DNA of 27,113 nucleotides from Polyangiaceae bacterium LLY-WYZ-15_(1-7) (GTDB lineage Bacteria > Myxococcota_A > Polyangia > Polyangiales > Houyiibacteriaceae): NCBI GenBank assembly GCA_031800675.1, contig DAPKRU010000126.1:1-27113 (forward strand), read 5' to 3'. The notes below the pieces were generated by a model. The model had not been told where the DNA came from. It worked only from the letters and a program-made list of their open reading frames with translations, and did no database searches. A program made the position numbers and the translations under genes. Within the stretch, counting starts at the first letter, position 1, and each line of letters begins with the position of its first letter. This document shows, one piece after another, positions 2,451 through 17,050 of the stretch.

Positions 2451-3509
2451 CTACTTGTAGCGATCCCCGTACATCCGCTCCTGCAAGTCCGTGTACCACC
2501 CCTCGAAGTCCTGGAACGGGAAGAACAGAAACACGGGGATCTGCGCGATCCCGTACGCATAGGCGCGTGCCGTCGGCAGACTGAGCCTCTTCTGCGCCGC
2601 GTCGATGGCCACGTACAGGCTCATGAACTTGGCGAAAGACGCCCCACAGCGCAGGGCCGATCGAACCCGGTTGGGGCTGTGGACCGCGTGGAGCGCCAGC
2701 AGGTTCCGCACCCGGATGGTGTTGACGCGAAAACGGCCGACCTTGCTGTCGTTCCCGTCGGCGTGGAAGAAACCCGCATCCGGAGCCACGAGCAACCGGC
2801 CGAGCTGGGACATGCGATAGGAGAAGTCGCTGTCCTCGTGGGTGGCGTAGTAGCGCAAGAGCTCCGTCCACCCCGACTCCTCGGCGAGCTCGCGACGGAA
2901 GGTCGTGCGCCCCCCGTTCACGAGCCGGCAGGGGAAGACGTTCAGGTGCTCCACGGACTCGGGCACGGGCCCCATGTCCACCGGGTCGTCGTAGGGCACG
3001 AAGTGGCTGCCGAGCGCGAGCTGCTTCTCGACCCACTTCCGCAGCTTGGTGCCCCGCAGCTTGGCGCCGGAGCCTCCCCTTCGAGCGGGCCGAGGACTCC
3101 GCTTTCGTTTCGCGTCGTAGGGGCCCGGCATGAACCGCCCCGTGACCATCGCGATCTCGCGGCGCGTGTCGGCCTCGTACACCTCCATCACGATCTCGGC
3201 GGCATCGGGATAGAGATAGATGTCGTCATCCAGCGAGAACACGACGTCCGAGGTCGCGAGGCGCAAGGCCTGGTTGCGCTGGAAGGTCAGGGACCGCACC
3301 TCGGCCGGCACGTAGACCAATCGGACCTCGTCCCAATGACGCTCGAACTCCGCCACCATGGCTTCGCGGGTGTCCTCCCAGTCGTCCGAGGCATCCACGA
3401 CGACCACCTCGGCGGGCGGGCGTGTCTGACCGAGCGCGTGGCGCAGCGTCTCGACCAGGAAGTGCGGCCGGTTGTAGGTGCAGATCGCGAGCGTCCAGTT
3501 CAACGTCAT
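2451..3509 (-). CDS. Family-2 glycosyltransferase
   Basis: ORF 2451..3563. The likely start is the internal Met (MTLNWTLAICTYNRP...), cat at 3507-3509. It has the typical GT2 N-terminus (CTYNRP, VVVVDASDD, the DDD region). Confidence 0.75.
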   Translation of the reverse strand: MTLNWTLAICTYNRPHFLVETLRHALGQTRPPAEVVVVDASDDWEDTREAMVAEFERHWDEVRLVYVPAEVRSLTFQRNQALRLATSDVVFSLDDDIYLYPDAAEIVMEVYEADTRREIAMVTGRFMPGPYDAKRKRSPRPARRGGSGAKLRGTKLRKWVEKQLALGSHFVPYDDPVDMGPVPESVEHLNVFPCRLVNGGRTTFRRELAEESGWTELLRYYATHEDSDFSYRMSQLGRLLVAPDAGFFHADGNDSKVGRFRVNTIRVRNLLALHAVHSPNRVRSALRCGASFAKFMSLYVAIDAAQKRLSLPTARAYAYGIAQIPVFLFFPFQDFEGWYTDLQERMYGDRYK

Positions 3510-3769
3510 GGGCTTCCCCACTGTCCATCGGAGCTGGAACACGCCCGGGGTGCCCGAACGCACCCGAAGGGGGGCTCCAGCGTGGGAGCTCTCCGCGAGA
3601 CGAGGGCGCCCACGCCGTCATCCAACCGATTCCCCCCACGCCGATGACCATGCCCGACCTTCGCGAGAACGTCGTCACCCGCCTTGGTGAGAAATAGCCG
3701 CACGCTCCAAACGGGAATCTCGTGGAAACCCGCGCCCGACTCGCGCGAGGGGGAGAGTAGGATTCACCC

Positions 3770-4366
3770 ATGCCGGCCAACGAACGCGAGCAGTACACGC
3801 CCCGCCTCGACGACGCCCTCCAGCTCGCCGCCGACGCCTTCCGCAAGCAGGTCCGCAAGGGGAGCGGCATCCCCTACCTCATGCACCTGCTCCAGGTGAT
3901 GGTCACCGTCGGCGAGCACGGCGGCGACGAAGACCAGATGATCGCCGCCGTCCTCCACGACTACCTCGAGGACGTGCCCGAGGCGACGGGGGAGGAGGTC
4001 GAGGCCCGCTTCGGCCCGCGCGTGCGCCGCCTGGTCGAGGCCCTCAGCGACACCGTCGAGACGCCCAAGCCGCCCTGGGAGCCGCGCAAGGTCGCCTACA
4101 TCGAGGCCCTCCGCGCGGAGCCGCCCGAGCTCAAGCTGATCAGCGCCGCCGACAAGCTCCACAACGCGCGCTCGATCCTCCGCGACCTCGGCGAGCTCGG
4201 CGACGCCCTCTGGGACCGCTTCACGGCGAGCAAGGAGCAGTCGCTCTGGTACTACCGGAGCGTCGTCGACGCGCTCGCCGAGGGCTGGAGCCACCCGCTC
4301 GTCGACGAGCTCCGCGCCGTCGTCGAGGCCATGCACCGCGAGGCGGGGGTGGCGCTCGAGCGTTGA
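3770..4366 (+). CDS. HD-domain protein resembling the RelA/SpoT hydrolase domain (small alarmone hydrolase-like)
   Basis: GSGIPYLMHLLQVMVTVGEHGGDEDQMIAAVLHDYLEDV matches the SpoT/Mesh1 HD pattern (PYxxHxLxVA...AALLHDxxEDT). A Shine-Dalgarno-like gggggagag lies upstream. Confidence 0.7.
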   Translation: MPANEREQYTPRLDDALQLAADAFRKQVRKGSGIPYLMHLLQVMVTVGEHGGDEDQMIAAVLHDYLEDVPEATGEEVEARFGPRVRRLVEALSDTVETPKPPWEPRKVAYIEALRAEPPELKLISAADKLHNARSILRDLGELGDALWDRFTASKEQSLWYYRSVVDALAEGWSHPLVDELRAVVEAMHREAGVALER

Positions 4367-7820: not shown

Positions 7821-8565
7821 GATGGCGAAGAAGGTCCGGGCCGACGTCCTCCTGCACGAGCGCGGGCTCGCGCCGAGCCGTTCCCGCGCGCAGGCGCTGA
7901 TCCTCGCCGGCAAGGTCTACGTCGGCGAGCAGCGCGTGGAGAAGGCCGGCGAGCGCCTCGCGTCCGACGTCGAGCTCGTCGTGCGCGGCACCGACAACCC
8001 CTACGTCTCCCGCGGGGGCCTCAAGCTCCAGGGCGCCCTCGACGCCTTCGCCCTCGATCCGGCCGGCCTCGTCGCCGCCGACTTCGGCGCCTCCACCGGC
8101 GGCTTCACCGATTGCCTGCTCCAGCGCGGCGCGGCGAAGGTCTACGCGATCGACGTCGGGTACGGTCAGCTGCATCCGAAGCTCCGGAACGACGCACGCG
8201 TCGTCGTCATGGAGCGTACCAACGCGCGCCACCTGAAGGCCGGCGACCTGCCCGATCCCATCGATCTCGTCGTCATCGACGCCTCCTTCATCTCACTCCG
8301 GAAGCTCCTCCCCGCGGCCGTCGCGCTGCTGCGCCCGGGGGGCGAGGTCGTCGCGATGGTGAAGCCGCAGTTCGAGGTCGGCCGCCGCGAGGTCAGCAAG
8401 ACGAGCGGCGTCGTCCGGGACCCGGCGCTCCGCGCGAAGGCCATCGACGCCGTCGCCGCCGAGGCCGCCGCGCTCGGCCTCGAGGAGGTCGCCCGCGCCG
8501 ACGCGCCCATCAAGGGCCCGAAGGGCAACCACGAAGCCTTCCTGCGTCTCCGCGCACGCGCCTGA
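7821..8565 (+). CDS. tlyA: TlyA-family rRNA 2'-O-methyltransferase (hemolysin A family)
   Basis: MAKKVRADVLLHERGLAPSRSRAQALILAGKV is the S4 domain. FtsJ-like methyltransferase motifs (AADFGASTGGFTDCLLQRGA, VIDASFISL) follow. Confidence 0.85.
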
Positions 8566-8831
8566 CTCCGCCGCGCTTCGAAGGGGGCGACGCCGCGCCG
8601 ACTGCCCGCTCGTGGGGCGCGTGTCGATGGGCGGGCCGGGTGGGCGAGGTCCACCCCACGAAGCGGAGGGAGCCCCCGGCGAGAAGAGCTGGCGCCTGCC
8701 GTTCGCGGAGCGGGACGTCGAGCGGATCCCCGGAGCGGATCGCTGGAGGGACTCCGACCCGCGGCGCGGCGCCTCCCGTCCTCGACCGCCGGGGCGGCCT
8801 CACGCAGCCGGCTCGGCGCCGCGGCGATCGA

Positions 8832-8905
8832 GGTCGGGCGCTGGTTCCGGCGCGTGGATTCGAACCACGATTCGCGGATTCAAAGTCCGCTGTCCTGCCA
8901 TTAGA
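8832..8905 (-). tRNA. tRNA-Gln (anticodon TTG)
   Basis: Acceptor TCCGGCG/CGCCGGA pairs 7/7. T-arm CGTGG-TTCGAAT-CCACG. Anticodon arm GCGGA-CTTTGAA-TCCGC. CCA is encoded. Confidence 0.8.
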
Positions 8906-9043
8906 CGACGCCGGAGAGAGTGGCGCGGCCGGGCCGCGCTCGGATGTCGTGCACATACCACGGGCGCGGCGGCCGAGCCACGAAGGCCCCGCCGCCGGAT
9001 TGCCCCTTTCGCCGCCCGCGCCGCGCGGTATGCTCGGCGCCCC

Positions 9044-9742
9044 ATGGCCACCGCGCGAACGCTCGAGCTCACGGACCCGATCAAGCGCCGCCTGCTGCAC
9101 CTGCGCTACGTGAGCGGCACGAAGACCGACCCGACGCTCGACGCGGCCCTCGTCGAGGACGTCGAGAAGACCCTCGGCCTGAAGCTCGGCGACAACCTGC
9201 TCGCGCTCCTCGCGAACGGCGACGTCGCCCTCGAGGGCTTCGACGTGCGCCTGCAGAACGTCGTCTCGCTGACCAAGGAGCTCCACGCGAGCGGCGGCCC
9301 GCGCGGCATGGTCGGCCTCGGGCGCGACCCGGGCGGCGACGTGCTCGTGGCGGCGCCCCTCGGCGGGAAGGGTGTCGCCTTCTTCGACACGCGCGACCGC
9401 TCGATCGACGCCGTGCCTCTCGAGGCGTGGCTCGACGAGCTGGTGGGCACGCAGCTCGAGCAGCTCCGCGAGGACGAGTCGGACGACAAGGCGCGCGCGT
9501 TCAAGTCCGTGCACGACGAGGACCTCGGGGGCTTCCGGCCGGCGCTCGTCGTGGACGAGACGCCCGCCAAGCGGGTCTCGCACCCGAAGTTCGGCGGCGG
9601 CGCGATCCTGCGCGAGCTGGACGGCGGCGCGAAGCTCGAGGTGCGCTTCGACGACGGATCGAAGCGCACGCTGCTCGCGCGCTTCCTCACCCGCCAGGGC
9701 GGCGGGGAGGAACCTTCGGGGGACGCGGGCGCGGAGGCCTGA
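9044..9742 (+). CDS. Hypothetical protein with a C-terminal UvrD-C/DUF3553-like motif and a possible SMI1/KNR4 (SUKH)-like N-region
   Basis: The C-terminus HPKFGGGAILRELDGGAKLEVRFDDGSKRTLLARFL resembles the helicase C-terminal Tudor-like motif. The N-terminus has a VEKTLGLKLGDNLLALLANGD stretch reminiscent of SUKH immunity proteins. It is the only plus-strand gene inside the tRNA array. Confidence 0.5.
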   Translation: MATARTLELTDPIKRRLLHLRYVSGTKTDPTLDAALVEDVEKTLGLKLGDNLLALLANGDVALEGFDVRLQNVVSLTKELHASGGPRGMVGLGRDPGGDVLVAAPLGGKGVAFFDTRDRSIDAVPLEAWLDELVGTQLEQLREDESDDKARAFKSVHDEDLGGFRPALVVDETPAKRVSHPKFGGGAILRELDGGAKLEVRFDDGSKRTLLARFLTRQGGGEEPSGDAGAEA

Positions 9743-9912
9743 GGAGGCCGGCGAGGAAGCTCGAGCGTGGAGGCTCGGCGCCGCCTCGCCCCGGCGGACG
9801 TGCCGGCCGCCGCCCTGTTCGAGAGCGGGAGGGCCGGAGCAGGTCGACCGAGCGGGCAGCCCGAGCGTGTCTGCTCCATGAGGCGCGGCGAGCCCGGACG
9901 GTTCGCGCGGCG

Positions 9913-9986
9913 TGGTGCGAGAAGCGGGACTCGAACCCACATCTTCGGCGTGGCGCACCGGTGTCCTGCCGTTGGACGATTCTCGC
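9913..9986 (-). tRNA. tRNA-Gly-like (anticodon GCC), non-canonical anticodon loop
   Basis: Acceptor GCGAGAA/TTCTCGC 7/7. T-arm GTGGG-TTCGAGT-CCCGC. Anticodon loop GCGCCAC has C at position 33 and a 27:43 C-A mismatch. CCA is encoded. Confidence 0.5.
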
Positions 9987-10016
9987 GGAGGCGCGGCCCG
10001 GAGCGCGGGCCGCGGG

Positions 10017-10088
10017 AGCGACGAGCGGGAGTCGAACCCACATCTCCGACATGGCCAGCCGGTGTCTTGTCCATTGGACGATCGTCGC
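10017..10088 (-). tRNA. tRNA-Gly-like (anticodon GCC), non-canonical anticodon loop
   Basis: Acceptor GCGACGA/TCGTCGC 7/7. T-arm GTGGG-TTCGACT-CCCGC. Anticodon arm CCGGC-TGGCCAT-GTCGG with G at position 33. Confidence 0.5.
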
Positions 10089-10184
10089 AGACGCGCCTCC
10101 GAAGAGGCGCGGTGCCTCGCCTCCCCCCGCGGGTGCGAGGAGGGGCGCGGCGTGGCCGCTGGAGCAGCCGGGAGGAACGACGAG

Positions 10185-11015
10185 TCAGCGCTCGTCTTCC
10201 AGGAGCTCGAGGTCCTTCAGGCCGACCACGAAGCGCCCGCCGGAGCGGGCCATGGTCGCGAGGGTCTCGAGCTGGCGAAGCTTCAGCAGGGCCGGGTGCG
10301 CGGCGAGGGCCTCGGCCTGCTCGACCTCGGCCCGGAGCGCGACGCGCTGGCGTTCCAGCTCGGCCGCCGAGCGCTCCTTCTCCGCCTCGAGCTCGAGGTG
10401 GAGCCGCTCGCGCTCGGCCTCGAGGCGACGCCGCTGCGCCTCCTCGTCGGCCCGGGCGGCCAGCTTGCGGGCCTCGATGTCCTTGCGCTGCTGGATGAGC
10501 TTCGCCTCCGCGCGGCGCTCGGTCTCGAGGACCTGGTTCATGATCGTCTTGAGGTTCCCCGGGAAGACGAGATCCTTCACGTCCGCCCGGTGGATCTCGA
10601 CGCCGTAGCCCTGCGCCGCGTCCTTGACGGTCTCGCGGACCGCGTCCGAGATCTCGTTGCGGTCGCTGAGGATCGCGTCGAGGTCGCGGCTCGCGAGGAA
10701 GCGGCGCGCAGCGAGCTGCACGTCCTCGTAGATGCGCGCCTCGTAGTCGGCGACGTGGTGCTTGGCGGCGACCGGGTCGACGACCTCGAAGTAGACGAGG
10801 AGCGAGACGCGGATCGCGACCTTGTCGCGGGTCAGGATCTCCTGGCCCTTGATGACGAGGGAGCGCTCGCGGAGGTCGACGAGGTCGACGCGGCGGACCT
10901 TGCGGTCGAAGAGGCCGCCGCCCAGGGGATGGCGGCCGGGGGGGAGGGCGTCCTCGTAGACGCCGTCCACGTAGAGGAGCCCGACGTGGGCGTTCGGAAC
11001 GACGAAGTGCGACAT
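10185..11015 (-). CDS. SPFH/band-7 (stomatin/prohibitin-like) domain protein
   Basis: Start MSHFVVPNAHVGLLYVDGVY (cat at 11013-11015) is preceded by a GGAGGTG RBS. The SPFH core is ILTRDKVAIRVSLLVYFEVVDP. The C-terminus is a coiled coil rich in E/R/A. Confidence 0.8.
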   Translation of the reverse strand: MSHFVVPNAHVGLLYVDGVYEDALPPGRHPLGGGLFDRKVRRVDLVDLRERSLVIKGQEILTRDKVAIRVSLLVYFEVVDPVAAKHHVADYEARIYEDVQLAARRFLASRDLDAILSDRNEISDAVRETVKDAAQGYGVEIHRADVKDLVFPGNLKTIMNQVLETERRAEAKLIQQRKDIEARKLAARADEEAQRRRLEAERERLHLELEAEKERSAAELERQRVALRAEVEQAEALAAHPALLKLRQLETLATMARSGGRFVVGLKDLELLEDER

Positions 11016-11191
11016 GGTGCACCTCCTGGGGAAAGGGGTGGAAAGGGAGGCCGAGCGCCTACGCAGTGGCAAGACGTAGAACGGGGAGCTCCGGCGGGAC
11101 GCGCCGGAGGGGCCGGACCAGTACGAGTGGCCTGATCTCTTGGAAGGAGAGACTCGCTCCGGCCCCGCTACTTCCATGGGGCGCTCGGCGG

Positions 11192-11262
11192 TGCGGTGAG
11201 GGGGAATCGAACCCCCGTCTCCAGGATGGGACTCTGGTGTCGTGCCGTTGGACCATCACCGC
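11192..11262 (-). tRNA. tRNA-Gly (anticodon CCC)
   Basis: Acceptor GCGGTGA/TCACCGC 7/7. T-arm GGGGG-TTCGATT-CCCCC. Anticodon loop GTCCCAT with a 31:39 mismatch. Confidence 0.6.
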
Positions 11263-11351
11263 AGGCGGGGTGCCCCGGAGGCGGGTGCACCCCTCATCGC
11301 TCCTCCGCACGAGCTCCGGTGCCGCCCACCGAAGGAAACAGAGGACCGGGG

Positions 11352-11381
11352 TCGCGACGCCGTCGTCAGCAGAGGCGTCGC
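11352..11381 (-). terminator. GC-rich hairpin (9-bp stem CGCGACGCC/GGCGTCGCG) immediately 3' of tRNA-Ser(GCT); possible terminator or processing structure
   Basis: Read directly. On the minus strand it is followed by tcctctgtttcctt. Confidence 0.3.
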
Positions 11382-11385
11382 GCCG

Positions 11386-11471
11386 GCGGAGAACGGAGGT
11401 CTCGAACCCCACACCCACGCGGGTGCGCACGGTTTAGCAAACCGGCCTGGCCGCCCGGCCAGTTCGTTCTC
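11386..11471 (-). tRNA. tRNA-Ser (anticodon GCT), type II (long variable arm)
   Basis: Acceptor GGAGAAC/GTTCTCC 7/7. T-arm TGGGG-TTCGAGA-CCTCC. Anticodon loop TTGCTAA. Variable-arm helix CACCC-GCGT-GGGTG. Confidence 0.65.
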
Positions 11472-11514
11472 CAGAGGCCTCGAGGGAGGCCGAGGCGCGC
11501 CCGAAGGCGCACCG

Positions 11515-11606
11515 GCACGCCGGCCAGGAATCGAACCCGACTCACCGGATTTGGAATCCGAGCTGCTCCCAGAGCACCGACGTATGAGCTCCCGAGCGAC
11601 CCGGCG
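11515..11606 (-). tRNA. tRNA-Trp-like (anticodon CCA), atypically long (92 nt) with about 20 extra nt between the acceptor and anticodon arms
   Basis: Acceptor ACGCCGG/CCGGCGT 7/7. T-arm TCGGG-TTCGATT-CCTGG. Anticodon arm TCGGA-TTCCAAA-TCCGG. The D-region is 39 nt instead of about 19. Confidence 0.4.
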
Positions 11607-11755
11607 TCGTTCGACGGGGCCGTCGTGATCGTCTCGAGCGACGCGAGCGCCTGCGCCCGCGCCGGCCCTCGTGGACCGCCCCCACGCTCTCGTTCGAAGA
11701 GCGTGCGAGCGAAGCGAGGGCGAGGGGGAGAGCGGCCCCTCCATGAACGCGGCGG

Positions 11756-11842
11756 CGGAGAGCAGAGGACTCGCACCCCACGCCCGCGAAGGCGCGCACC
11801 GCTTTCGAGGCGGGCTCGGTGGCCTGCACCGATTTGCTCTCC
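11756..11842 (-). tRNA. tRNA-Ser-like (anticodon CGA), type II, with a non-canonical T-loop TGCGAGT
   Basis: Acceptor GGAGAGC/GCTCTCC 7/7. Anticodon arm CCGC-CTCGAAA-GCGG. The T-loop has G at position 55, so it may be a pseudogene. It shares architecture with the Ser(GCT) tRNA at 11386-11471. Confidence 0.45.
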
Positions 11843-11850
11843 AGGGTCGG

Positions 11851-11934
11851 CGGAAGCGAGAGGACTCGAACCCCACGCCCATGGGCGCGCATCCGCTTCC
11901 AACGGAGCCTGGTCCCCCGACCAGCTTCGCTTCC
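11851..11934 (-). tRNA. tRNA-Ser (anticodon GGA), type II
   Basis: Acceptor GGAAGCG/CGCTTCC 7/7. T-loop TTCGAGT. Anticodon loop TTGGAAG. Variable-arm helix CGCCC-AT-GGGCG. Confidence 0.65.
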
Positions 11935-11959
11935 ATCGATCGCGCTCCGCAGAGCGCGG

Positions 11960-12031
11960 TCGGGGTGGCAGGAGTCGAACCTGCACCTTCCCGGCCCCCA
12001 GCCGGGCGTCTTCCCCCAAGACTTCACCCCG
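11960..12031 (-). tRNA. tRNA-Pro (anticodon GGG)
   Basis: Acceptor CGGGGTG/CACCCCG 7/7. D-stem GTCT/AGAC. Anticodon arm CCCGG-CTGGGGG-CCGGG with G37. T-arm GCAGG-TTCGACT-CCTGC. Confidence 0.75.
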
Positions 12032-12185
12032 AGGGCTCCGCCGGCGCCGGCGGAGGGGCGTCACCCGCTGGGCGACGCGAAGAAAGGACCGGGAGGGAGG
12101 CGCGCGTTCCCGCGGCGTTCGTTGGCGCGCCCCCCTCCCGGAGGGCCCGCGCCGGGACCATTCCCGACGCGGAAGGCGCTCCCCA

Positions 12186-12704
12186 TCAGGCGAGCGCCGA
12201 GGTCCAGGACATCCACGTCCGCCAGTGCTGCGGGATGTGCGAGACGTCGAGGTGCAGCGTGCCCCCGGGCAGCCACTTCGGCCGACGCGGCGCCTTGCGG
12301 AGCGGCATCTTCGCCTGCTGCGGCGTCCGGTCCGCCTTCCGCTCGTTGCAGCGGCGGCACGCGGTCACGATGTTCTCCCACGTCGTGGTGCCGCCCTGGG
12401 CGCGCGGCAGGACGTGGTCGTACGTCAGGTCACGCATCGGCAGCTTCTCGCCGCAGTACTGGCAGCTGAAGCCGTCCCGCAGGAAGACGTTCAGGCGCGA
12501 GAACTTGATGCGGTGCTGGCGGAAGCGGTTCCCCTGGCGGAGGCGCACGACGGCGGGCATGCGCATCGCGAGGCTGACGGAACGGATGACGTCCTCGTAC
12601 TCCTCCACGACGTCGGCCTTGCCCACGTACAGGAGCGTGACGGCCTTCTGCCAGGGGACGATTTGGTGCGGTTGGTAGCCTTGGTCGAGAACGAGCGTGC
12701 GCAT
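12186..12704 (-). CDS. HNH endonuclease embedded in the tRNA array
   Basis: HNH motif: DHVLPRAQGGTTTWENIVTACRRCNERKADR with upstream Cys pair CQYCGEKL. Start MRTLVLDQGYQ (cat at 12702-12704) is preceded by an AGGAGAT RBS. Confidence 0.8.
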   Translation of the reverse strand: MRTLVLDQGYQPHQIVPWQKAVTLLYVGKADVVEEYEDVIRSVSLAMRMPAVVRLRQGNRFRQHRIKFSRLNVFLRDGFSCQYCGEKLPMRDLTYDHVLPRAQGGTTTWENIVTACRRCNERKADRTPQQAKMPLRKAPRRPKWLPGGTLHLDVSHIPQHWRTWMSWTSALA

Positions 12705-12796
12705 GGCGAGATCTCCTGCGTGCCTGCGGCACGCGGTGGTGGACGAGACGGGTCGCCCCCGCGAAGGGGGACCCGCTGGCCGACCATTCGGCCGAG

Positions 12797-12826
12797 CGAC
12801 GCGCGGCGATCTCGTGCGCGTCGCGG
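12797..12826 (-). terminator. Perfect 9-bp inverted repeat GCGACGCGC...GCGCGTCGC abutting the 3' end of tRNA-Glu(CTC) and upstream of the HNH gene
   Basis: Read directly. Function unknown (terminator, processing or regulatory). Confidence 0.3.
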
Positions 12827-12899
12827 CGACGGATACGGGACTCGAACCCGTGTTTCCTGGCTGAGAACCAAGCGTCCTGGGCCACTAGACGAATCCGTC
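12827..12899 (-). tRNA. tRNA-Glu (anticodon CTC)
   Basis: Acceptor GACGGAT/ATCCGTC 7/7. Anticodon arm CTTGG-TTCTCAG-CCAGG. T-arm ACGGG-TTCGAGT-CCCGT. Confidence 0.7.
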
Positions 12900-12921
12900 G
12901 GGAGGCGGCTCGCGCCGCCGG

Positions 12922-13004
12922 TACCAGGGACAGGAGTCGAACCTGCATGCCTCGAGGGGCCACACGACCTCAGCGTGCTGCGTTTACCGTTTCGCCACCC
13001 TGGC
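12922..13004 (-). tRNA. tRNA-Leu (anticodon GAG), type II
   Basis: Acceptor GCCAGGG/CCCTGGT (G1-U72). Anticodon arm GCACG-CTGAGGT-CGTGT. Long variable arm CCTC-GAGG. T-arm GCAGG-TTCGACT-CCTGT. Confidence 0.65.
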
Positions 13005-13063
13005 GTGGCACGCCCGGTCGGGGCGCGTGTTCGTTCGCGGCGCAGAGCGCGCCGCCGCGTCGG

Positions 13064-13136
13064 TACGGGATCAGGGGATCGAACCCTGCTCCTCCGCCTC
13101 GTCATGGCGGCGTCGTCCCCAGACGACTCATCCCGT
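13064..13136 (-). tRNA. tRNA-Val (anticodon GAC)
   Basis: Acceptor ACGGGAT/ATCCCGT 7/7. D-stem GTCG/CGAC. Anticodon arm CCGCC-ATGACGA-GGCGG. T-arm CAGGG-TTCGATC-CCCTG. Position 8 is G. Confidence 0.7.
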
Positions 13137-13284
13137 GTGATCCGCGCCGGAGCTCGCCTCCGACGGGGGAGGGGCGAAGCTCAGCCCCGAGCGAGCGGTC
13201 CGAGAGCGGGAAGAGGAGGGCGGCCCGGTGTCTGCGGGCGCGCCCGTGGCGAGCGATGGCGCCGTGTCGTGCGAAGCGACCGCG

Positions 13285-13438
13285 CCCGCATCTGCCCGCT
13301 CGGCCCGGCCTCGCAGGCCGCGCTCGCCCGGACTCGAAGAACGGGGAGGCGCGTGCGAGCGAAGCGAGCGCGAGGGAGGGGGACCCGGCGGAGCTCGCCT
13401 CCGACGGGGGAGGGGCGAAGCTCAGCCCCTCCCATCAA
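13285..13438. repeat. Roughly 150-bp segmental repeat, copy 1 (GCCCGCATCTGCCCGCTCGGCC...GAGCTCGCCTCCGACGGGGGAGGGGCGAAGCTCAGCCCCTCC)
   Basis: Near-identical copy at 13775-13928. The 40-bp 3' core hairpin element GGAGCTCGCCTCCGACGGGGGAGGGGCGAAGCTCAGCCCC also occurs at 13149-13189. Confidence 0.75.
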
Positions 13439-13444
13439 TACCGG

Positions 13445-13526
13445 TACCGGAGACAGGAGTCGAACCTGCATGCCTCGAGGGCCACGCGTTCTGAGCGCGC
13501 TACGTATACCGTTCCGCCACTCCGGT
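13445..13526 (-). tRNA. tRNA-Leu (anticodon CAG), type II
   Basis: Acceptor ACCGGAG/CTCCGGT 7/7. Anticodon arm GCGCG-CTCAGAA-CGCGT. Paralogous to Leu(GAG), sharing the same D and T arms. Confidence 0.7.
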
Positions 13527-13549
13527 GCATGGACGGCCGAAGCCGTCGG

Positions 13550-13621
13550 CGACGCGTACGGGAATCGAACCCGTCTCACCCCGGAGACAACGGGGCTGCA
13601 TACCCAGATGCACAACGCGCC
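13550..13621 (-). tRNA. tRNA-Asp (anticodon GTC)
   Basis: Acceptor GGCGCGT/ACGCGTC (one G-U). D-stem TGCA/TGCA. Anticodon arm CCCCG-TTGTCTC-CGGGG. T-arm ACGGG-TTCGATT-CCCGT. Confidence 0.75.
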
Positions 13622-13650
13622 ATGATCGATGAGCTCGCTCGCGCGAGCGG

Positions 13651-13730
13651 TGCTGGAGGCAGGAGTCGAACCTGCACGCCCGAGGGCCACGTGGTTTGAG
13701 CACGCTGCGTCTCCCGTTCCGCCACTCCAG
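13651..13730 (-). tRNA. tRNA-Leu (anticodon CAA), type II
   Basis: Acceptor GCTGGAG/CTCCAGC 7/7. Anticodon loop CTCAAAC. Long variable arm. T-arm GCAGG-TTCGACT-CCTGC. Confidence 0.7.
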
Positions 13731-13774
13731 CGCCGAGCCGCCGCGGACCGCGTCGTCGCCACCGGGGCTCGGGC

Positions 13775-13928
13775 GGCCGCCCCCGCATCTGCCCGCTCGG
13801 CCCGCCTCGCAGGCCGCGTTCGCCCGGACTCGAAGAACGGGGTGGTGCGTGCGAGCGAAGCGAGCGCGAGGGAGGGGGACCCGTCGGAGCTCGCCTCCGA
13901 CGGGGGAGGGGCGAAGCTCAGCCCCTCC
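13775..13928. repeat. Roughly 150-bp segmental repeat, copy 2
   Basis: Aligns with 13285-13438 with a few substitutions. Confidence 0.75.
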
Positions 13929-13938
13929 AAGAACGCCG

Positions 13939-13986
13939 CGCCACGTGGTTTGAGCACGCTGCGTCTCCCGTTCCGCCACTCCAGCG
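13939..13986 (-). pseudogene. Truncated tRNA-Leu(CAA) fragment: the 5' half (acceptor through anticodon arm and part of the variable arm) is duplicated without the T-arm or 3' acceptor
   Basis: ccacgtggtttgagcacgctgcgtctcccgttccgccactccagcgcc is identical to 13688-13733. Its downstream flank gccgagccgccgcggaccgcgtcgtcgccacc is also duplicated. Confidence 0.7.
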
Positions 13987-14089
13987 CCGAGCCGCCGCGG
14001 ACCGCGTCGTCGCCACCTGGGCTCGGGGGCTCCGGCTCGCAGACGGACCGGCTGCTTCCGCGAAGGTCGGCGCCTGGGCGTCGACCTCG

Positions 14090-14162
14090 GTACGGGGCCA
14101 GGGAATCGAACCCTGCTCGTCCGCCTCGTGACGGCGGCGTCGTCCCCAGACGACTCGCCCCG
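14090..14162 (-). tRNA. tRNA-Val (anticodon CAC)
   Basis: Acceptor GCGGGGC/GCCCCGT (G1-U72). Anticodon arm CCGCC-GTCACGA-GGCGG. Paralogous to Val(GAC). Confidence 0.7.
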
Positions 14163-14163
14163 C

Positions 14164-14233
14164 ATGGCTGCGGAGAGACTCGAACTCTCGCGGCCGCCCG
14201 TATGAGAGGCGTCGGCCGTCCTCGGCCCGCAGC
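14164..14233 (-). tRNA. tRNA-Met (anticodon CAT), short (70 nt) with a compact D-arm
   Basis: Acceptor GGCTGCG/CGCAGCC 7/7. Anticodon arm CGCCT-CTCATAC-GGGCG. T-arm GAGAG-TTCGAGT-CTCTC. Separated from the previous tRNA by 1 nt. Confidence 0.55.
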
Positions 14234-14269
14234 CGTTCGTGATGGCGGGTCGCCGCGAAGCGACCGCCG

Positions 14270-14342
14270 GCGCTTCCGCCAGGATTCGAACCTGGAACTC
14301 GGGTTTCGTAGACCCGCGTGATGATCCGTTTCACCACGGAAG
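14270..14342 (-). tRNA. tRNA-Arg (anticodon ACG)
   Basis: Acceptor GCTTCCG/CGGAAGC 7/7. D-stem GTGA/TCAC. Anticodon arm CGGGT-CTACGAA-ACCCG. T-arm CCAGG-TTCGAAT-CCTGG. Confidence 0.75.
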
Positions 14343-14435
14343 CAGGCGCCGCCCGCGGGCGGCACGAAGAGTGGGCGAGGGCGAGCGCACGGCACCGCGC
14401 GCCGAACGCGCGGGCGGTGATCGTCTCCTCGCCGG

Positions 14436-14503
14436 AGTGCCGAGTGGGAGTCGAACCCACCTTCGCCGGGTTGCAGCCGGCGGCGTTCCCAGAACACCGG
14501 CAC
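14436..14503 (-). tRNA. tRNA-Cys (anticodon GCA), compact (68 nt)
   Basis: Acceptor GTGCCGG/TCGGCAC (one G-U). Anticodon arm GCCGG-CTGCAAC-CCGGC. T-arm GTGGG-TTCGACT-CCCAC. Very short D-arm. Confidence 0.55.
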
Positions 14504-14510
14504 GCGATGG

Positions 14511-14582
14511 CGCTCCCCCCAGGGCTCGAACCTGGAACGCGGGCTCCGCACGCCCGAGTGATTCCGCTTTCACCAGAGAAGC
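14511..14582 (-). tRNA. tRNA-Arg (anticodon GCG)
   Basis: Acceptor GCTTCTC/GGGGAGC (two G-U). D-stem GTGA/TCAC. Anticodon arm CGGGC-GTGCGGA-GCCCG. T-arm CCAGG-TTCGAGC-CCTGG. Confidence 0.55.
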
Positions 14583-14644
14583 ATCGGCACCCTCGCTCCG
14601 ACTCGGCCGGATGGAGAGCGCACGCGAAGGCGCCGAAGCGCCGG

Positions 14645-14718
14645 TCCGTGTGGACGGATTCGAACCGCCGGCCTCCCCGACCCGAACGGGGCGCTCCTCC
14701 AGCCTGAGCTACACACGG
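14645..14718 (-). tRNA. tRNA-Pro (anticodon CGG)
   Basis: Acceptor CCGTGTG/CACACGG 7/7. D-stem GCTC/GAGC. Anticodon arm CCCCG-TTCGGGT-CGGGG. T-arm GGCGG-TTCGAAT-CCGTC. Confidence 0.75.
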
Positions 14719-14780
14719 AGGATCTCTCTCGAGCGCGGCGCCGAAGCTCCGCCATGAAGAAGCGGAGCCGAGCTCCGCGG

Positions 14781-14851
14781 CACTCCCGCCACGATTCGAA
14801 CGTGGACTTCAGGCTCCGGAAACCTGCGTGATTCCCTTTCACTACGGGAGC
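14781..14851 (-). tRNA. tRNA-Arg (anticodon CCG)
   Basis: Acceptor GCTCCCG/CGGGAGT (G1-U72). D-stem GTGA/TCAC. Anticodon arm CAGGT-TTCCGGA-GCCTG. T-arm CCACG-TTCGAAT-CGTGG. Confidence 0.7.
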
Positions 14852-14855
14852 GTGG

Positions 14856-14930
14856 TGACGCGTGGGGGATTCGAACCCCCGCCTCCCCGGCTGAAAACCG
14901 GGTGTCCTGGTGCCGCTAGACGAACGCGCC
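14856..14930 (-). tRNA. tRNA-Glu (anticodon TTC)
   Basis: Acceptor GGCGCGT/ACGCGTC. Anticodon arm CCCGG-TTTTCAG-CCGGG. T-arm GGGGG-TTCGAAT-CCCCC. Confidence 0.7.
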
Positions 14931-14942
14931 GGAATCGTCTGG

Positions 14943-15014
14943 AGCCCATGCCGGGACTCGCACCCGGCTCTCCGCCTTACGAGGGCGGCGCGTCGCTACC
15001 TACGCTTCGAGGGC
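14943..15014 (-). tRNA. tRNA-Thr-like (anticodon CGT), possible pseudogene
   Basis: Anticodon arm CCGCC-CTCGTAA-GGCGG. The T-loop is TGCGAGT (non-canonical). The acceptor GCCCTCG/CATGGGC has two adjacent mismatches. Paralog of the Thr(GGT) tRNA at 15138-15209. Confidence 0.4.
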
Positions 15015-15137
15015 AGGAGCGCGTCTTCCGACCCCGAAGCCCCCGCCGGAGCGGAGCCGCGGAGCCGGAAGGCGCGCTGGGAGAGGTCGGCGCCCCTCCC
15101 GCGGGAACGAACAACGAACGACAACTCGAGAGATGGA

Positions 15138-15209
15138 GCCCCCGCCGGGAATCGAACCCGGCTCTCCGCCTTACCGGGGCGGTGCGTCGCCGACTACGCA
15201 TCGTGGGCA
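15138..15209 (-). tRNA. tRNA-Thr (anticodon GGT), C at position 33
   Basis: Acceptor GCCCACG/CGGGGGC (one mismatch). D-stem GCGT/ACGC. Anticodon arm CCGCC-CCGGTAA-GGCGG. T-arm CCGGG-TTCGATT-CCCGG. Confidence 0.55.
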
Positions 15210-15236
15210 TGGCGCGGCGCCGGGCGCCGTCGCGGT

Positions 15237-15308
15237 GGAGATGGCGGGAATCGAACCCGCGGCCTCAGCCGTGCCATGGCTGCGCTCTCCCCCTGAGCTA
15301 CATCCCCT
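15237..15308 (-). tRNA. tRNA-Ala (anticodon GGC)
   Basis: Acceptor GGGGATG/CATCTCC with G3-U70 (Ala identity pair). D-stem GCTC/GAGC. Anticodon arm CAGCC-ATGGCAC-GGCTG. T-arm GCGGG-TTCGATT-CCCGC. Confidence 0.75.
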
Positions 15309-15336
15309 CTCGAACGCGCCCCGTTCGGCGCGCGGT

Positions 15337-15409
15337 GGAACCGGCGGGACTCGAACCCGCAGTCTCCGGCTTGCGACACCGGCGCCCTCCCCGTTGGGCC
15401 ACGATCCCT
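15337..15409 (-). tRNA. tRNA-Ala (anticodon CGC)
   Basis: Acceptor GGGATCG/CGGTTCC with G3-U70. D-stem GCCC/GGGC. Anticodon arm CCGGT-GTCGCAA-GCCGG. T-arm GCGGG-TTCGAGT-CCCGC. Confidence 0.7.
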
Positions 15410-15438
15410 CGCGAACGCTCCCCTCGCGGGGCGCGCGG

Positions 15439-15510
15439 TCCACTCGGGAAGAATCGAACTTCCGTTTCCCGCGTATCAGACGGGCGTCTTCACCATTGGA
15501 CGACGAGTGG
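15439..15510 (-). tRNA. tRNA-Ile (anticodon GAT)
   Basis: Acceptor CCACTCG/CGAGTGG 7/7. Anticodon arm CCCGT-CTGATAC-GCGGG. T-arm GGAAG-TTCGATT-CTTCC. Confidence 0.7.
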
Positions 15511-15514
15511 GTGG

Positions 15515-15586
15515 CGCCGCGTACGGGAATCGAACCCGTCTCACTCCGTAGACAGCGGAGCTGGTACGCCAGCTTCATCACGCGGC
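15515..15586 (-). tRNA. tRNA-Asp (anticodon GTC), second divergent copy
   Basis: Acceptor GCCGCGT/ACGCGGC 7/7. Anticodon arm CTCCG-CTGTCTA-CGGAG. T-arm ACGGG-TTCGATT-CCCGT. The D-region is unusual. Confidence 0.6.
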
Positions 15587-15633
15587 AGCGTCGGGCGGGC
15601 GGTGCGAGGCCTTCAGCCCCTCCGCCCACGCGG

Positions 15634-15706
15634 TGGCTCGAGCAGGGATCGAACCTGCACCTTCCGGGCTTCAACCGGACGCGCTCACCAGATGCGCTTT
15701 CGAGCC
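15634..15706 (-). tRNA. tRNA-Phe (anticodon GAA)
   Basis: Acceptor GGCTCGA/TCGAGCC 7/7. D-stem GCGC/GCGC. Anticodon arm TCCGG-TTGAAGC-CCGGA. T-arm GCAGG-TTCGATC-CCTGC. Confidence 0.75.
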
Positions 15707-15733
15707 GTCGCGGCGACCGGAGTCGCCGCCCGG

Positions 15734-15804
15734 CGGGGAGGTGCGGAGTCGAACCGCAACAACCCCGGTTAACGGCCGGGGCGCTCTCCCTGAGCTACCT
15801 CCCC
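15734..15804 (-). tRNA. tRNA-Asn (anticodon GTT), C at position 33
   Basis: Acceptor GGGGAGG/CCTCCCC 7/7. D-stem GCTC/GAGC. Anticodon arm CCCGG-CCGTTAA-CCGGG. T-arm TGCGG-TTCGACT-CCGCA. Confidence 0.6.
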
Positions 15805-15853
15805 ACGCACCGGGCTCCCGGTGCGCGCGCTCGCTCCGCGGAGCGAGCCGTGG

Positions 15854-15926
15854 GGTGACCGGGGGGAATCGAACCCCGACGCCGACTCGGGTCACGGCCG
15901 AGCGGACAGACCTCTGCGCGGTCACC
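15854..15926 (-). tRNA. tRNA-His (anticodon GTG) with encoded G-1 and C73; C at position 33
   Basis: Acceptor GTGACCG/CGGTCAC 7/7, plus an extra 5' G opposite discriminator C (His identity). Anticodon arm CTCGG-CCGTGAC-CCGAG. T-arm CGGGG-TTCGATT-CCCCC. Confidence 0.65.
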
Positions 15927-16082
15927 ACGTCGCAGGCCGCCGAGCCGAGCTCGAAGACCTGCTCTCCGGCGCCCCAGCTCGTCTGCGAGCCGAAGCGCCG
16001 GAGTGACGTGAGGCGGGCGCGACACCGCCCCACGTCCCCCGATTGTCAAAGACCTCCCGCCACCCCCGCTGGGGTGACGCGG

Positions 16083-16154
16083 TACCGGACCAGGGAGTCG
16101 AACCCCGACCTCGTGGTTCAGAGCCACGCGTCCTCGCCGTTGGACCAGTCCGGT
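16083..16154 (-). tRNA. tRNA-Gln (anticodon CTG)
   Basis: Acceptor ACCGGAC/GTCCGGT 7/7. Anticodon arm CGTGG-CTCTGAA-CCACG. T-arm CGGGG-TTCGACT-CCCTG. Confidence 0.75.
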
Positions 16155-16247
16155 GTGTTCTCGAAAGAGCGATGGGAGCCGGGGGCTCCCGGGAGCGGGC
16201 GCAGGGCGCACCTCTCCCGTCGCGTCGCGAGCGGGTCGCGGCGCCGG

Positions 16248-16318
16248 TAGGGCACCAGGGGGTCGAACCCTGATCGACCGGTTAAGAGCCGGCTGCTCTG
16301 CCGTTGAGCTAGTGCCCC
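16248..16318 (-). tRNA. tRNA-Lys (anticodon CTT)
   Basis: Acceptor GGGGCAC/GTGCCCT (G1-U72). D-stem GCTC/GAGC. Anticodon arm GCCGG-CTCTTAA-CCGGT. T-arm CAGGG-TTCGACC-CCCTG. Confidence 0.75.
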
Positions 16319-16409
16319 GTGCCGAGGCCGGGCCTCGGTCTCGTCGTTCGCTCGCGCTCCCCCCACTGGGTCGTCGGAGAACGGGGTCCTCGGAGGGAGC
16401 TCTCGCGGT

Positions 16410-16489
16410 CGGGCAGGAAGGAATCGAACCTCGTGGGCAGAGCCCCGGCGACTTTACAGGCCGCCTGCCGGCCACCGGCGCCTACCCGG
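16410..16489 (-). tRNA. tRNA-Tyr (anticodon GTA), type II
   Basis: Acceptor CGGGTAG/CTGCCCG (one G-U). Anticodon arm GCGGC-CTGTAAA-GTCGC. Long variable arm GGGC-TCT-GCCC. T-arm CGAGG-TTCGATT-CCTTC. Confidence 0.6.
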
Positions 16490-16524
16490 GCGGGGACGGA
16501 AACGAAGACGGGCCACCTGCGCTG

Positions 16525-16552
16525 ACGCAGGCGGCCCGTAAAAGGAGCACGA
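16525..16552 (-). terminator. 12-bp GC hairpin (one A-C mismatch) followed on the minus strand by TCTTCGTTTCC, just upstream of the first array tRNA (Tyr)
   Basis: gggccacctgcg-ctga-cgcaggcggccc read directly. Could be a weak terminator or a processing or insulator structure. Confidence 0.3.
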
Positions 16553-16994
16553 GAGCCTGGCGTCAGTCTGCTGGACACCCTCCACGAAGGGCCGGCGCAC
16601 CGGCCTCCTCGCGCTTCGCCTCTTCCCTCTGTTCCGCGGAGTCGTCCGCAGAATGGGCATCACGTTCGGCGAGAGTGAGCAAACTATGAGTGTTGTGATT
16701 CGATGAAAATAGAGATTGATTCAGCGCGTACGAGTCCCCTCGTCCGGCCCCCCATCGGGGGCTGGGCTGCCTCGAGCTCACCGCGCAGGCCCTCGTTCGA
16801 GGTCGTGCTCGGCCACCGAGGCGCTCGCTCGGGACGCCCGGGATCCGCCCGTCGCGTCTCGAGAGATGACCTCCCGCTGCGTCCATCTCGCTCTCGTTCC
16901 GGCCTCGGCCGGTCGTTCTCCTCTCCTCGTTCGTTCCTCGGGCCGGGGCTCTTCCCCGGCATGCTCTTCGCTTGGGTCGGCGGCCCGGGATCTC

Positions 16995-17050
16995 CAGCCC
17001 AGACTCTCGAGCCCAGACTCTCCAGCCCAGACTCTCCAGCCCAGACACGA
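16995..17050. repeat. Tandem 14-bp repeat (C/G)AGCCCAGACTCTC in 3.5 copies
   Basis: cagcccagactctc, gagcccagactctc, cagcccagactctc, cagcccagacacga read directly. It lies immediately downstream of the minus-strand terminator. Confidence 0.8.

Follow-up and report, generated by a model that had tools for sequence, protein, structure and literature searches.

What is a nuclease gene doing in the middle of a chromosomal tRNA array? The question is raised by a 27,113-nucleotide contig (DAPKRU010000126.1 of assembly GCA_031800675.1, the whole of which is referred to as the window in the rest of the text) from Polyangiaceae bacterium LLY-WYZ-15_(1-7), a member of the Myxococcota, in which an open reading frame (ORF) coding for a 172-aa HNH-type protein lies within a long run of tRNA genes. 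ORF calling, Pfam and ARAGORN agree on the arrangement that a sequence-only reading of the window had described, namely an HNH nuclease gene on the tRNA strand between tRNA-Pro(GGG) and tRNA-Glu(CTC). The gene is embedded mid-array and shares its strand with all 32 tRNA genes. The features needed first are the following, in window coordinates.

12186 to 12704, minus strand: gene for the 172-aa nuclease with PLMP-like and HNH domains (IshB-type by predicted architecture), ATG start, TGA stop, Pfam HNH.
12534 to 12704, minus strand: N-terminal domain, residues 1-57, beta-beta-alpha-beta-beta, predicted PLMP-like.
12303 to 12473, minus strand: HNH (beta-beta-alpha-metal) nuclease domain, residues 78-134, with two CxxC zinc ligand pairs.
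8842 to 16488, minus strand: long single-strand tRNA array, 32 genes that cover 19 amino acids (His is absent), called by ARAGORN.
12825 to 12899, minus strand: tRNA-Glu(CTC), neighbour on the upstream side, 121 nt away from the ATG (ARAGORN; Rfam tRNA, 56.5 bits).
11958 to 12031, minus strand: tRNA-Pro(GGG), the downstream neighbour, 154 nt from the HNH gene (ARAGORN; Rfam tRNA, 54.7 bits).

On the identity of the element we are highly confident: it is an HNH nuclease of a family that accompanies tRNA arrays, and it occupies a conserved array slot. Codon-position G+C of the ORF at 12186-12704 is of the coding type (0.88 at third positions, GC3, and 0.55 at second positions, GC2). Pfam returned HNH models only (HNH_5, 5.5e-17; HNH, 1.2e-15), and the protein carries the zinc and catalytic motifs C81xxC84, D96-H97-V-L-P and W109ENIVTAC116RRC119NERK, of which C81, C84, D96, H97, N111, C116, C119 and N120 are invariant in a 33-sequence alignment of the family. 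The ORF is a real gene for an intact two-domain HNH nuclease with predicted catalytic activity. More than 4,700 homologues of the protein occur in the public collection, in which contigs coding for the identical protein are spread over 140 blocks; many of these are marine metagenome contigs, and two belong to marine metagenome-assembled genomes (MAGs; GCA_002699025.1 and GCA_002720945.1) with the same array and flanks as the window. The nearest named relatives are MAGs of Polyangiales and other Myxococcota.

The tie of the family to tRNA genes was assessed in a species-level sample of one genome per species (80 loci, almost all from Myxococcota, with tRNAs called by ARAGORN). A tRNA gene lies at most 250 bp from the HNH gene in 43 of the 80 loci, and at least five tRNA genes lie within 3 kb in 26 of them, the arrays reaching 38 tRNAs. 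Where an upstream tRNA gene is found within 300 nt (69 non-redundant loci), it is on the HNH strand in 63 cases and codes for tRNA-Leu in 35. The order (Arg)-Met-(Pro)-Val-Leu(n)-[HNH]-(Pro)-Ser recurs. Phage homologues with 46-51% identity to the window protein occur between two tRNA-Leu genes in Mx1, 3' of five tRNA-Leu genes in Rctr197k and between tRNA-Thr genes in Tunturi_5, and the homologue of S-CBWM1 lies within a 28-tRNA region. Nearly all of the roughly 24 closest IMG/VR relatives (46-59% identity) belong to arrays of 15-41 tRNAs with the order Leu(n)|HNH|Pro/Ser, while a more distant low-GC IMG/VR group is not in such arrays. In Myxococcota and the related phages, the HNH gene thus has a conserved array slot, typically past the tRNA-Leu block and before tRNA-Pro or tRNA-Ser. 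In a neighbour-joining tree, array-embedded genes are found in several Myxococcota clades, with tRNA-less paralogue clades nested beside them, and the genes of Mx1 and Rctr197k adjoin the Myxococcaceae array clade. A literature search found no mention of tRNA arrays in Myxococcota; the presence of the family in arrays across this phylum, and in its closest phage and IMG/VR relatives, is new.

Long variable arms are typical of bacterial tRNA-Leu. The HNH-adjacent tRNA-Leu is only 73-77 nt long and lacks such an arm in ten of the Myxococcaceae, phage and IMG/VR arrays (L021, L039, L075, L080, L090, L100, L111, L112, L114 and L118), while the tRNA-Leu species of the window measure 83-85 nt. One family member, P0179 (538 aa), carries an intein (Hint plus LAGLIDADG) between its PLMP-like and HNH domains.

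The same distribution bears on a very improbable account, in which the protein would be an McrA-like HNH nuclease of generic restriction or defence function, hitch-hiking at tRNA loci because these are integration hot spots. Many homologues are indeed labelled 'McrA' by JGI, and PADLOC gave weak HNH-domain matches to PtuB, Cas9 and restriction-enzyme models. Against this, the tie to tRNA genes is strong, keeps to a specific position and strand, and recurs in four phyla as well as in phages; the gene has no flanking integrase, no partner defence gene or PADLOC system-level match beyond the HNH motif was found, and the N-terminal domain is PLMP-like instead of reading 5-methylcytosine. An McrA or other restriction-defence identity was rejected on these grounds (HNH-motif matches only, and neither a reader domain nor partner genes). 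The protein's best homologues come from chromosomal genes whose conserved context is a tRNA array, not the restriction-system or colicin-type HNH proteins with a conserved non-array context that the sequence-only reading had named as the outcome that would speak against it.

That HNH genes accompany tRNA arrays has been published before, for Mycobacterium as well as for cyanobacteria. HNH endonuclease genes are the most widespread coding sequences in the tRNA array units of Mycobacterium (Morgado and Vicente 2018, PMC5966550), and a single embedded HNH gene is conserved in four of four M. avium array types, on linear plasmids (2026 study, PMC12803027). In cyanobacteria, the HNH gene all8564 is conserved upstream of the L-arrays and is induced jointly with Anabaena's trn operon (Santamaria-Gomez et al. 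2021, PMC8421152); a SegB-like homing role was proposed for it (PMC8421152), and it belongs to the regulon of the repressor TrcR (PMC10272220). Alignment places the window protein in the same family as all8564 and the mycobacterial array HNH proteins. It is homologous over its full length, both domains included, to All8564 of Anabaena sp. PCC 7120 (E = 3e-33, 35% identity) and has a similar size (172 against 178 aa), and both genes are linked to a long single-strand array, of 24 tRNAs in Anabaena. However, all8564 lies upstream of its array, on a plasmid, and has its own TrcR-controlled promoter, whereas the window gene lies mid-array at a syntenic chromosomal locus, apparently without a promoter of its own, and the tRNA order of the two arrays differs. 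In Nostoc CENA543, too, a 20-tRNA array has a homologue directly upstream. Pfam searches of the called genes showed no TrcR or XRE-type regulator in the vicinity of the window array.

The mycobacterial array proteins share 36-38% identity with the window protein over 81% of its length, and in the plasmid arrays of M. intracellulare and Mycolicibacterium the HNH gene is likewise embedded on the tRNA strand (...Val-Met|HNH|Asn-Tyr...), but the flanking tRNAs and their order differ from those of the window. Mycobacterial arrays are carried by plasmids, phages or mobile regions and are clearly supernumerary, in contrast to the Myxococcota array, which is chromosomal and syntenic across genera. The association described here is of a known kind, met in a phylum new to it and on a chromosome, with vertical inheritance; the window case adds an IshB-type classification and conserved cis-elements, both computational. 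In the Mycolicibacterium sp. TY66 plasmid (L095), a gene for a TnpB-family RNA-guided endonuclease (2888-4105) lies about 0.9 kb 5' of the first tRNA of the array, and RNB-domain ribonuclease genes flank both mycobacterial HNH-carrying arrays.

The sequence-only reading had likened this setting to phage tRNA regions with free-standing homing endonucleases such as T4 SegB, which furthers the inheritance of the tRNA region and cleaves inside tRNA genes (cited in PMC8421152). The comparison with phages holds in that the closest phage relatives do lie inside phage tRNA regions, and the interspersion of a nuclease gene with tRNA genes, as for SegB and the T5 tRNA-region endonucleases, provides a working analogy for mechanism. 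It does not extend to SegB itself: SegB is a GIY-YIG enzyme, and the window protein matches HNH families only and is unrelated to it in sequence and fold. The window HNH gene also differs from a sporadic homing gene in being fixed and under purifying selection (see below).

What kind of HNH protein is it, then? AlphaFold confidently modelled the whole protein as two domains (mean predicted local distance difference test, pLDDT, of 84), with a beta-beta-alpha-beta-beta fold at residues 1-57 and the HNH domain at residues ~78-134; the N-terminal domain modelled alone also reached a pLDDT of 84. A Foldseek search with the N-terminal domain gave IscB or IsrB as all of the top six matches (probability 0.80-0.99), and the model thus predicts that this domain has the PLMP fold of IscB and IsrB. 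Sequence comparison added little. A PDB profile search with the N-terminal alignment did not find IscB or anything else relevant, hhalign of the N-terminal domain against the PLMP sequence of DtIsrB was null (DtIsrB is unalignable), and a profile search of the whole library with this domain gave family members only among the 150 matches listed and did not show the IscB link. The PLMP segment of TbaIscB aligns weakly but in register (V.D....P.......KA..LL..GKA.V.), with a score that 4 of 2000 shuffles reach. The PLMP motif is degenerate, reading YQPH in the window protein and YLPL in All8564.

The HNH domain belongs to the IscB/Cas9 lineage, its nearest relatives being IscB, Cas9 (Cas9d), the Gme HNH nickase and McrA. 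Among solved stand-alone HNH domains, the nearest is that of Gme HNH from Geobacter metallireducens (PDB 4H9D, named by its depositors a Mn-dependent nicking endonuclease; 38% identity over ~60 residues, E = 4.7e-13), which is unlike the window protein in being a 112-aa HNH domain without a PLMP-like N-terminal domain or a tRNA-array context. The combination of domains corresponds instead to IshB, an uncharacterised lineage of ~180-aa PLMP plus HNH proteins without RuvC (PMC10734217, PMC11610941, PMC13284715): the window protein has 172 aa, a PLMP-type N-terminal domain, an HNH domain nearest to IscB and Cas9d, and no RuvC. Its predicted domain layout thus equals that reported for IshB, a small relative of the Cas9 ancestor IscB, with membership assigned from architecture, as secondary sources describe IshB. 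A decayed IscB was considered and ruled out, as the ORF is bounded by tRNA genes, no RuvC remnants are present and the family is uniformly ~170-180 aa long. The literature search found no link of IshB or PLMP with tRNA arrays.

How might such a gene be expressed from within an array, and does its surrounding RNA offer it a partner? The signals around the gene are as follows.

12713 to 12717, minus strand: Shine-Dalgarno sequence AGGAG, 8 nt 5' of the ATG, read from the sequence.
12718 to 12734, minus strand: hairpin of the 5' untranslated region (5'-UTR), GCGTGCC-GCA-GGCACGC, a perfect 7-bp inverted repeat that abuts the Shine-Dalgarno sequence.
12749 to 12775, minus strand: hairpin in the tRNA-Glu/HNH spacer, with 10-nt arms at 12749-12758 and 12766-12775.
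12778 to 12793, minus strand: hairpin of 6 bp in the same spacer.
12796 to 12824, minus strand: hairpin in the same spacer, with 9-bp arms at 12796-12804 and 12816-12824.
12078 to 12141, minus strand: terminator-like element 3' of the HNH stop, a 17-bp GC-rich hairpin (12089-12141) followed by a U-rich tail, UCCUUUCUUCG.
16508 to 16539, minus strand: strong terminator-like hairpin, 14 bp long with 11 GC pairs and followed by a T-rich tail, 5' of the first array gene, tRNA-Tyr.

The AGGAG sequence bears out the earlier claim of an own ribosome-binding site. Of the perfect inverted repeats claimed upstream, the one at 12796-12824 does have perfect 9-bp arms, whereas the arms of the one at 12749-12775 are only 90% complementary, and none of the three spacer hairpins between 12749 and 12824 is conserved among the relatives compared. 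The hairpin next to the Shine-Dalgarno sequence is conserved. In the subclade of the window, a GCGTGC-loop-GCACGC hairpin lies ~30 nt upstream of the ATG with its 3' arm abutting the ribosome-binding site. The motif GCGTGC-N2-7-GCACGC occurs only 11 times in the 2.38 Mb of fetched loci, and six of these occurrences lie 28-56 nt 5' of an HNH start, one per member of the subclade, in spacers that are otherwise unalignable between the six loci. The stem has the same sequence throughout, with loops of 2-5 nt, and hence shows no covariation; positional conservation is strong nonetheless. The 132-nt upstream region as a whole folds better than 200 of 200 dinucleotide shuffles (z = -2.9).

No sigma-70-like promoter was found anywhere in the window array. 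In Myxococcaceae, phage and many IMG/VR arrays, the distance from the tRNA 3' end to the HNH start is 20-40 nt, where only a ribosome-binding site fits, which argues for co-transcription of the HNH gene with the tRNAs and for an mRNA 5' end produced by tRNA processing. On the other side of the gene, the region 12032-12190 folds with z = -3.3, and long hairpins of other sequence lie 3' of the HNH stop in five further loci (L021, L039, L015, L017 and L013), several of them with a U-rich tail. The hairpin and U-rich tail past the HNH stop suggest that transcription terminates or is attenuated there, which would divide the array into two units. The hairpin at 16508-16539 probably isolates the array from the genes that lie upstream on its strand, namely two small Pfam-less ORFs and a chorismate-binding enzyme gene. 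In a Polyangiales subgroup (L018-L032 and L078), the HNH gene has its own conserved promoter-like sequence, GGTTCAC-N17-GCTATAC, and lies ~100 bp from a solitary tRNA-Arg(CCT); this tRNA, with a promoter of its own, occurs in either orientation across genomes, at the same distance.

These signals and the domain architecture bring up an improbable reading in which the protein would act like an OMEGA system, as an IshB RNA-guided or RNA-scaffolded nickase loaded with a transcript from just upstream. Such an RNA, for which the adjacent tRNA, the trailer of that tRNA and the 5'-UTR hairpin are candidates, would lead the enzyme to a complementary or cognate nucleic acid and so mirror the omega-RNA located 5' of iscB and isrB. 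The PLMP plus HNH architecture with an HNH domain nearest to IscB and Cas9d is in keeping with it, as is the same-strand tRNA directly 5' of the ORF in 63 of the 69 tRNA-adjacent loci. The IsrB PLMP domain, a four-stranded antiparallel sheet with one helix that resembles the N-terminal domain of IF3 (IF3-N), touches the terminal omega-RNA hairpin and the Shine-Dalgarno sequence just 5' of the ORF (PMC9581776), the element that is conserved here. In contrast, Rfam revealed no omega-RNA, giving only tRNA-type matches in 8500-17000, and no large structured RNA other than tRNAs is conserved. The promoter of the Polyangiales subgroup lies ~25 nt from the ATG and leaves no room for an upstream guide. 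Nor do IshB proteins have the scaffold (RuvC, TI and bridge helix) by which IscB and IsrB hold their guide. No IS200/IS605 TnpA gene or transposon ends are found nearby (genes called in the 10 kb to each side include no TnpA-type Pfam family). We give correspondingly little credence to the broader proposition that long tRNA arrays are a main natural habitat of IshB-type nucleases and that the protein works with RNA made just upstream, and it seems just as doubtful that a tRNA (most often tRNA-Leu), its trailer or the Shine-Dalgarno hairpin serves as scaffold, guide or autoregulatory ligand.

Is the gene a recent arrival or a settled resident? The genes that flank the array bear on this, together with the following two ORFs.

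10185 to 11177, minus strand: Band_7/SPFH (slipin-type) gene, the second protein gene within the array (Pfam Band_7, 9.6e-28).
8612 to 9742, plus strand: Pfam-less ORF between the Band_7 gene and tRNA-Gln(TTG)/TlyA.

The same array is present in MAG contigs, and its core order is common to the arrays of relatives. In the window and the MAG contigs, one flank carries genes for a protein kinase and a chorismate-binding enzyme, and the other the Band_7/SPFH gene, the Pfam-less conserved ORF, tRNA-Gln(TTG) and a TlyA-like methyltransferase gene. The order chorismate-binding enzyme gene, array, Band_7, orf376, TlyA recurs in seven relatives (L010, L011, L012, L013, L016, L017 and L020), matching being partial in four of them: L011 and L012 share only the chorismate-binding enzyme gene, and L010 and L016 only the downstream genes. 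The seven arrays span 4 to 38 tRNAs and all seven keep the HNH gene, in a sample biased by retrieval of the loci via that very gene; the HNH proteins are 61-81% identical to that of the window. Flanking tRNAs turn over, with tRNA-Glu now standing between the Leu block and the HNH gene in the window, and with tRNA-Trp (L010 and L016) or tRNA-Ser (L011) 3' of it elsewhere. The Nei-Gojobori ratio of nonsynonymous to synonymous substitution rates (dN/dS) of the HNH gene against its closest relatives is 0.20-0.28, which is probably an overestimate since GC3 bias compresses dS.

Residence at one syntenic chromosomal locus under purifying selection makes the HNH gene a stable resident and not a recent invader. 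It does not behave here like a recently inserted free-standing homing gene, as seen from its retention in seven syntenic chromosomal arrays, its dN/dS of ~0.2-0.3 and its invariant catalytic and zinc residues. Observations on a mobile or phage-derived origin of the array point both ways: related arrays occur in phages and IMG/VR contigs, and the window array lies at a syntenic chromosomal locus in seven relatives, and no integrase, phage or plasmid genes flank it in the window or the MAG contigs (Pfam of called genes). With window G+C uniform throughout (66-79%) and the chromosomal flanks syntenic, a prophage or island origin of this particular array was rejected. Comparison of relatives with and without the array, proposed earlier as a route to the target site, led nowhere. 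Neither a metagenome scan with the chorismate-binding enzyme nor a viral scan with the conserved tRNA-Ser segment recovered an HNH-less empty site; the first gave four relatives of the enzyme (56-68% identity) without an array and without shared synteny downstream, so that no target site could be defined, and the second only two contigs, both already in the sample. A fixed, vertically inherited homing gene is expected to decay, and the long vertical retention of this one weighs against a purely selfish homing gene.

Retention of this kind would also suit a partner in translational stress, which we consider unlikely. The protein would then be no selfish DNA element: its IF3-N-like PLMP domain would bind tRNA or structured RNA, and it might act on RNA, act on RNA-DNA hybrids (for instance R-loops at the heavily transcribed array), or regulate expression or processing of the array transcript. 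Besides long vertical retention under purifying selection at a single chromosomal locus, the conservation of stand-alone paralogues in housekeeping contexts points this way, as does membership of all8564 in the TrcR translational-stress regulon, which also comprises the trn operon, rtcB and a gene for a slipin (PMC10272220, PMC8421152). In Anabaena, the slipin gene alr0740 is derepressed 42-fold, in a TrcR regulon shared with the trn operon and all8564 (PMC10272220), and a Band_7/slipin-type gene is also embedded in the Myxococcota arrays. In the window, it stands between tRNA-Gly(CCC) and tRNA-Gly(GCC); it is kept inside or at the end of the arrays of L010, L013, L016 and L017, has more distant counterparts in L015 and L021, and is absent from the viral arrays compared. 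Binding of RNA hairpins by the IsrB PLMP domain, which resembles the IF3 N-terminal domain (PMC9581776), and the conserved hairpin abutting the Shine-Dalgarno sequence fit as well, and IshB has been speculated to represent an RNA-compatible state (PMC13284715). However, the nearest HNH domains (IscB, Cas9, the Gme HNH nickase and McrA) are DNases, there is no evidence of RNase activity in the family, and the neighbourhoods of the non-array paralogues lack a consistent RNA-metabolism theme. Some MAGs contain both an array copy and a stand-alone copy, and the neighbours of the latter are stable within a clade but unrelated between clades (a FeoB-like gene with a low-molecular-weight phosphatase gene, a YhhQ-like gene, or a HIT-family gene); for this reason, the neighbourhood was dropped as a clue to function.

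The explanation that we prefer is a homing-like one, as proposed for all8564 and shown for T4 SegB. The HNH gene would be transcribed together with the upstream tRNAs, tRNA processing would generate the 5' end of its mRNA, and transcription would probably stop or attenuate at the hairpin and U-rich tail past the HNH stop. The protein would most likely be a site- or structure-specific enzyme that nicks or cleaves tRNA-array DNA, and the breaks may provoke recombination or gene conversion by which arrays are maintained, spread and reshuffled. In the chromosomal lineage, the nuclease would now be a stably inherited, selected component rather than an active invader. Its PLMP-like domain probably binds a nucleic-acid hairpin, which may include its own 5'-UTR hairpin and Shine-Dalgarno sequence and thereby permit autoregulation. 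Taken whole, with the mechanism included, we hold this explanation tentatively, at somewhat less than an even chance.

Several observations weigh against it. Distant family members in PA5oct, S-TIM54, Rhizobium phages (RHph) and alphaproteobacterial replicons are not near tRNAs, and stand-alone paralogues occupy stable tRNA-free contexts, for instance next to a FeoB-like gene in Kofleriaceae, so that residence in an array is not obligatory for the family. Our comparisons identified no cleavage site, target or HNH-less allele, all seven syntenic arrays keeping the gene, and purifying selection fits a function beneficial to the host or the array at least as well as it fits homing. The PLMP assignment comes from a predicted structure and its sequence signal is weak. 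Finally, we infer co-transcription with the tRNAs from the spacing to the upstream tRNA, the lack of a promoter-like site in the array and the terminator-like hairpins downstream, and a homing endonuclease role of the window protein is putative.

Long tRNA arrays have been discussed as translational-stress and anti-defence modules, and their companion nuclease has often been noted but never characterised. One protein family accompanies such arrays in Myxococcota chromosomes, phages, and cyanobacterial and mycobacterial plasmids, and the combination of a fixed array slot with purifying selection in one large clade argues for a real array-tied function and against a passing parasite. Knowledge of IshB comes only from genome mining; a strong and reproducible association with arrays offers concrete experiments on what it does, a question that belongs to the story of how Cas9 and IscB arose. 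The hairpin at the ribosome-binding site and the placement right past a tRNA make testable predictions on expression control and on an RNA partner. Should the RNA-partnered reading be true, tRNA arrays would provide a tractable system for the function of IshB and the origin of the PLMP-HNH module of IscB.

The remaining observations concern the array and its surroundings. The plus-strand ORF at 8612-9742 is conserved at 43-50% identity in the loci of six relatives (L010, L013, L016, L017, L020 and the near-identical contig L004). Segmental duplications occupy 13145-14030, where a repeat of roughly 500 bp includes a partial tRNA-Leu copy: 128 nt at 13305-13432 recur at 13801-13928 with 96% identity, 88 nt at 13686-13773 recur at 13940-14027 with 99% identity and contain the partial tRNA-Leu(CAA) copy, and a 44-nt unit is present in triplicate. 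The genes for tRNA-Val(GAC) and tRNA-Val(CAC) are 89% identical. The Val(CAC)-Leu(CAA) spacer is ~254 bp shorter in MAG contig L005 than in the window, and the array duplications are therefore polymorphic in the population. The link between the nuclease and the duplications at 13145-14030, which the sequence-only reading had attributed to nuclease-stimulated recombination, is only spatial.

Three tRNA-like sequences that ARAGORN did not call (11757-11842, 15854-15926 and 11384-11426) are probably tRNA pseudogenes or remnants; Rfam gave sub-threshold matches to its tRNA-Sec model (36 and 28 bits), and a T-arm-like repeat family, D9, is shared with tRNA-Ser. Atypical tRNAs of the array lie at 11514-11583, 13062-13136, 14165-14234, 14508-14582 and 13548-13621. 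Rfam scores of tRNA-Trp (28.8 bits) and tRNA-Val(GAC) (26.4 bits) are below the tRNA threshold, and the Met, Arg(GCG) and one Asp tRNA went unreported by Rfam at E <= 0.1. The Trp, Met and Cys tRNAs of the array are just 70 nt long, and CCA is present at or just past the 3' end in about 8 of the 33 tRNAs of the near-identical contig L004. tRNA-Arg(GCG), which is rare in bacteria, recurs in related arrays.

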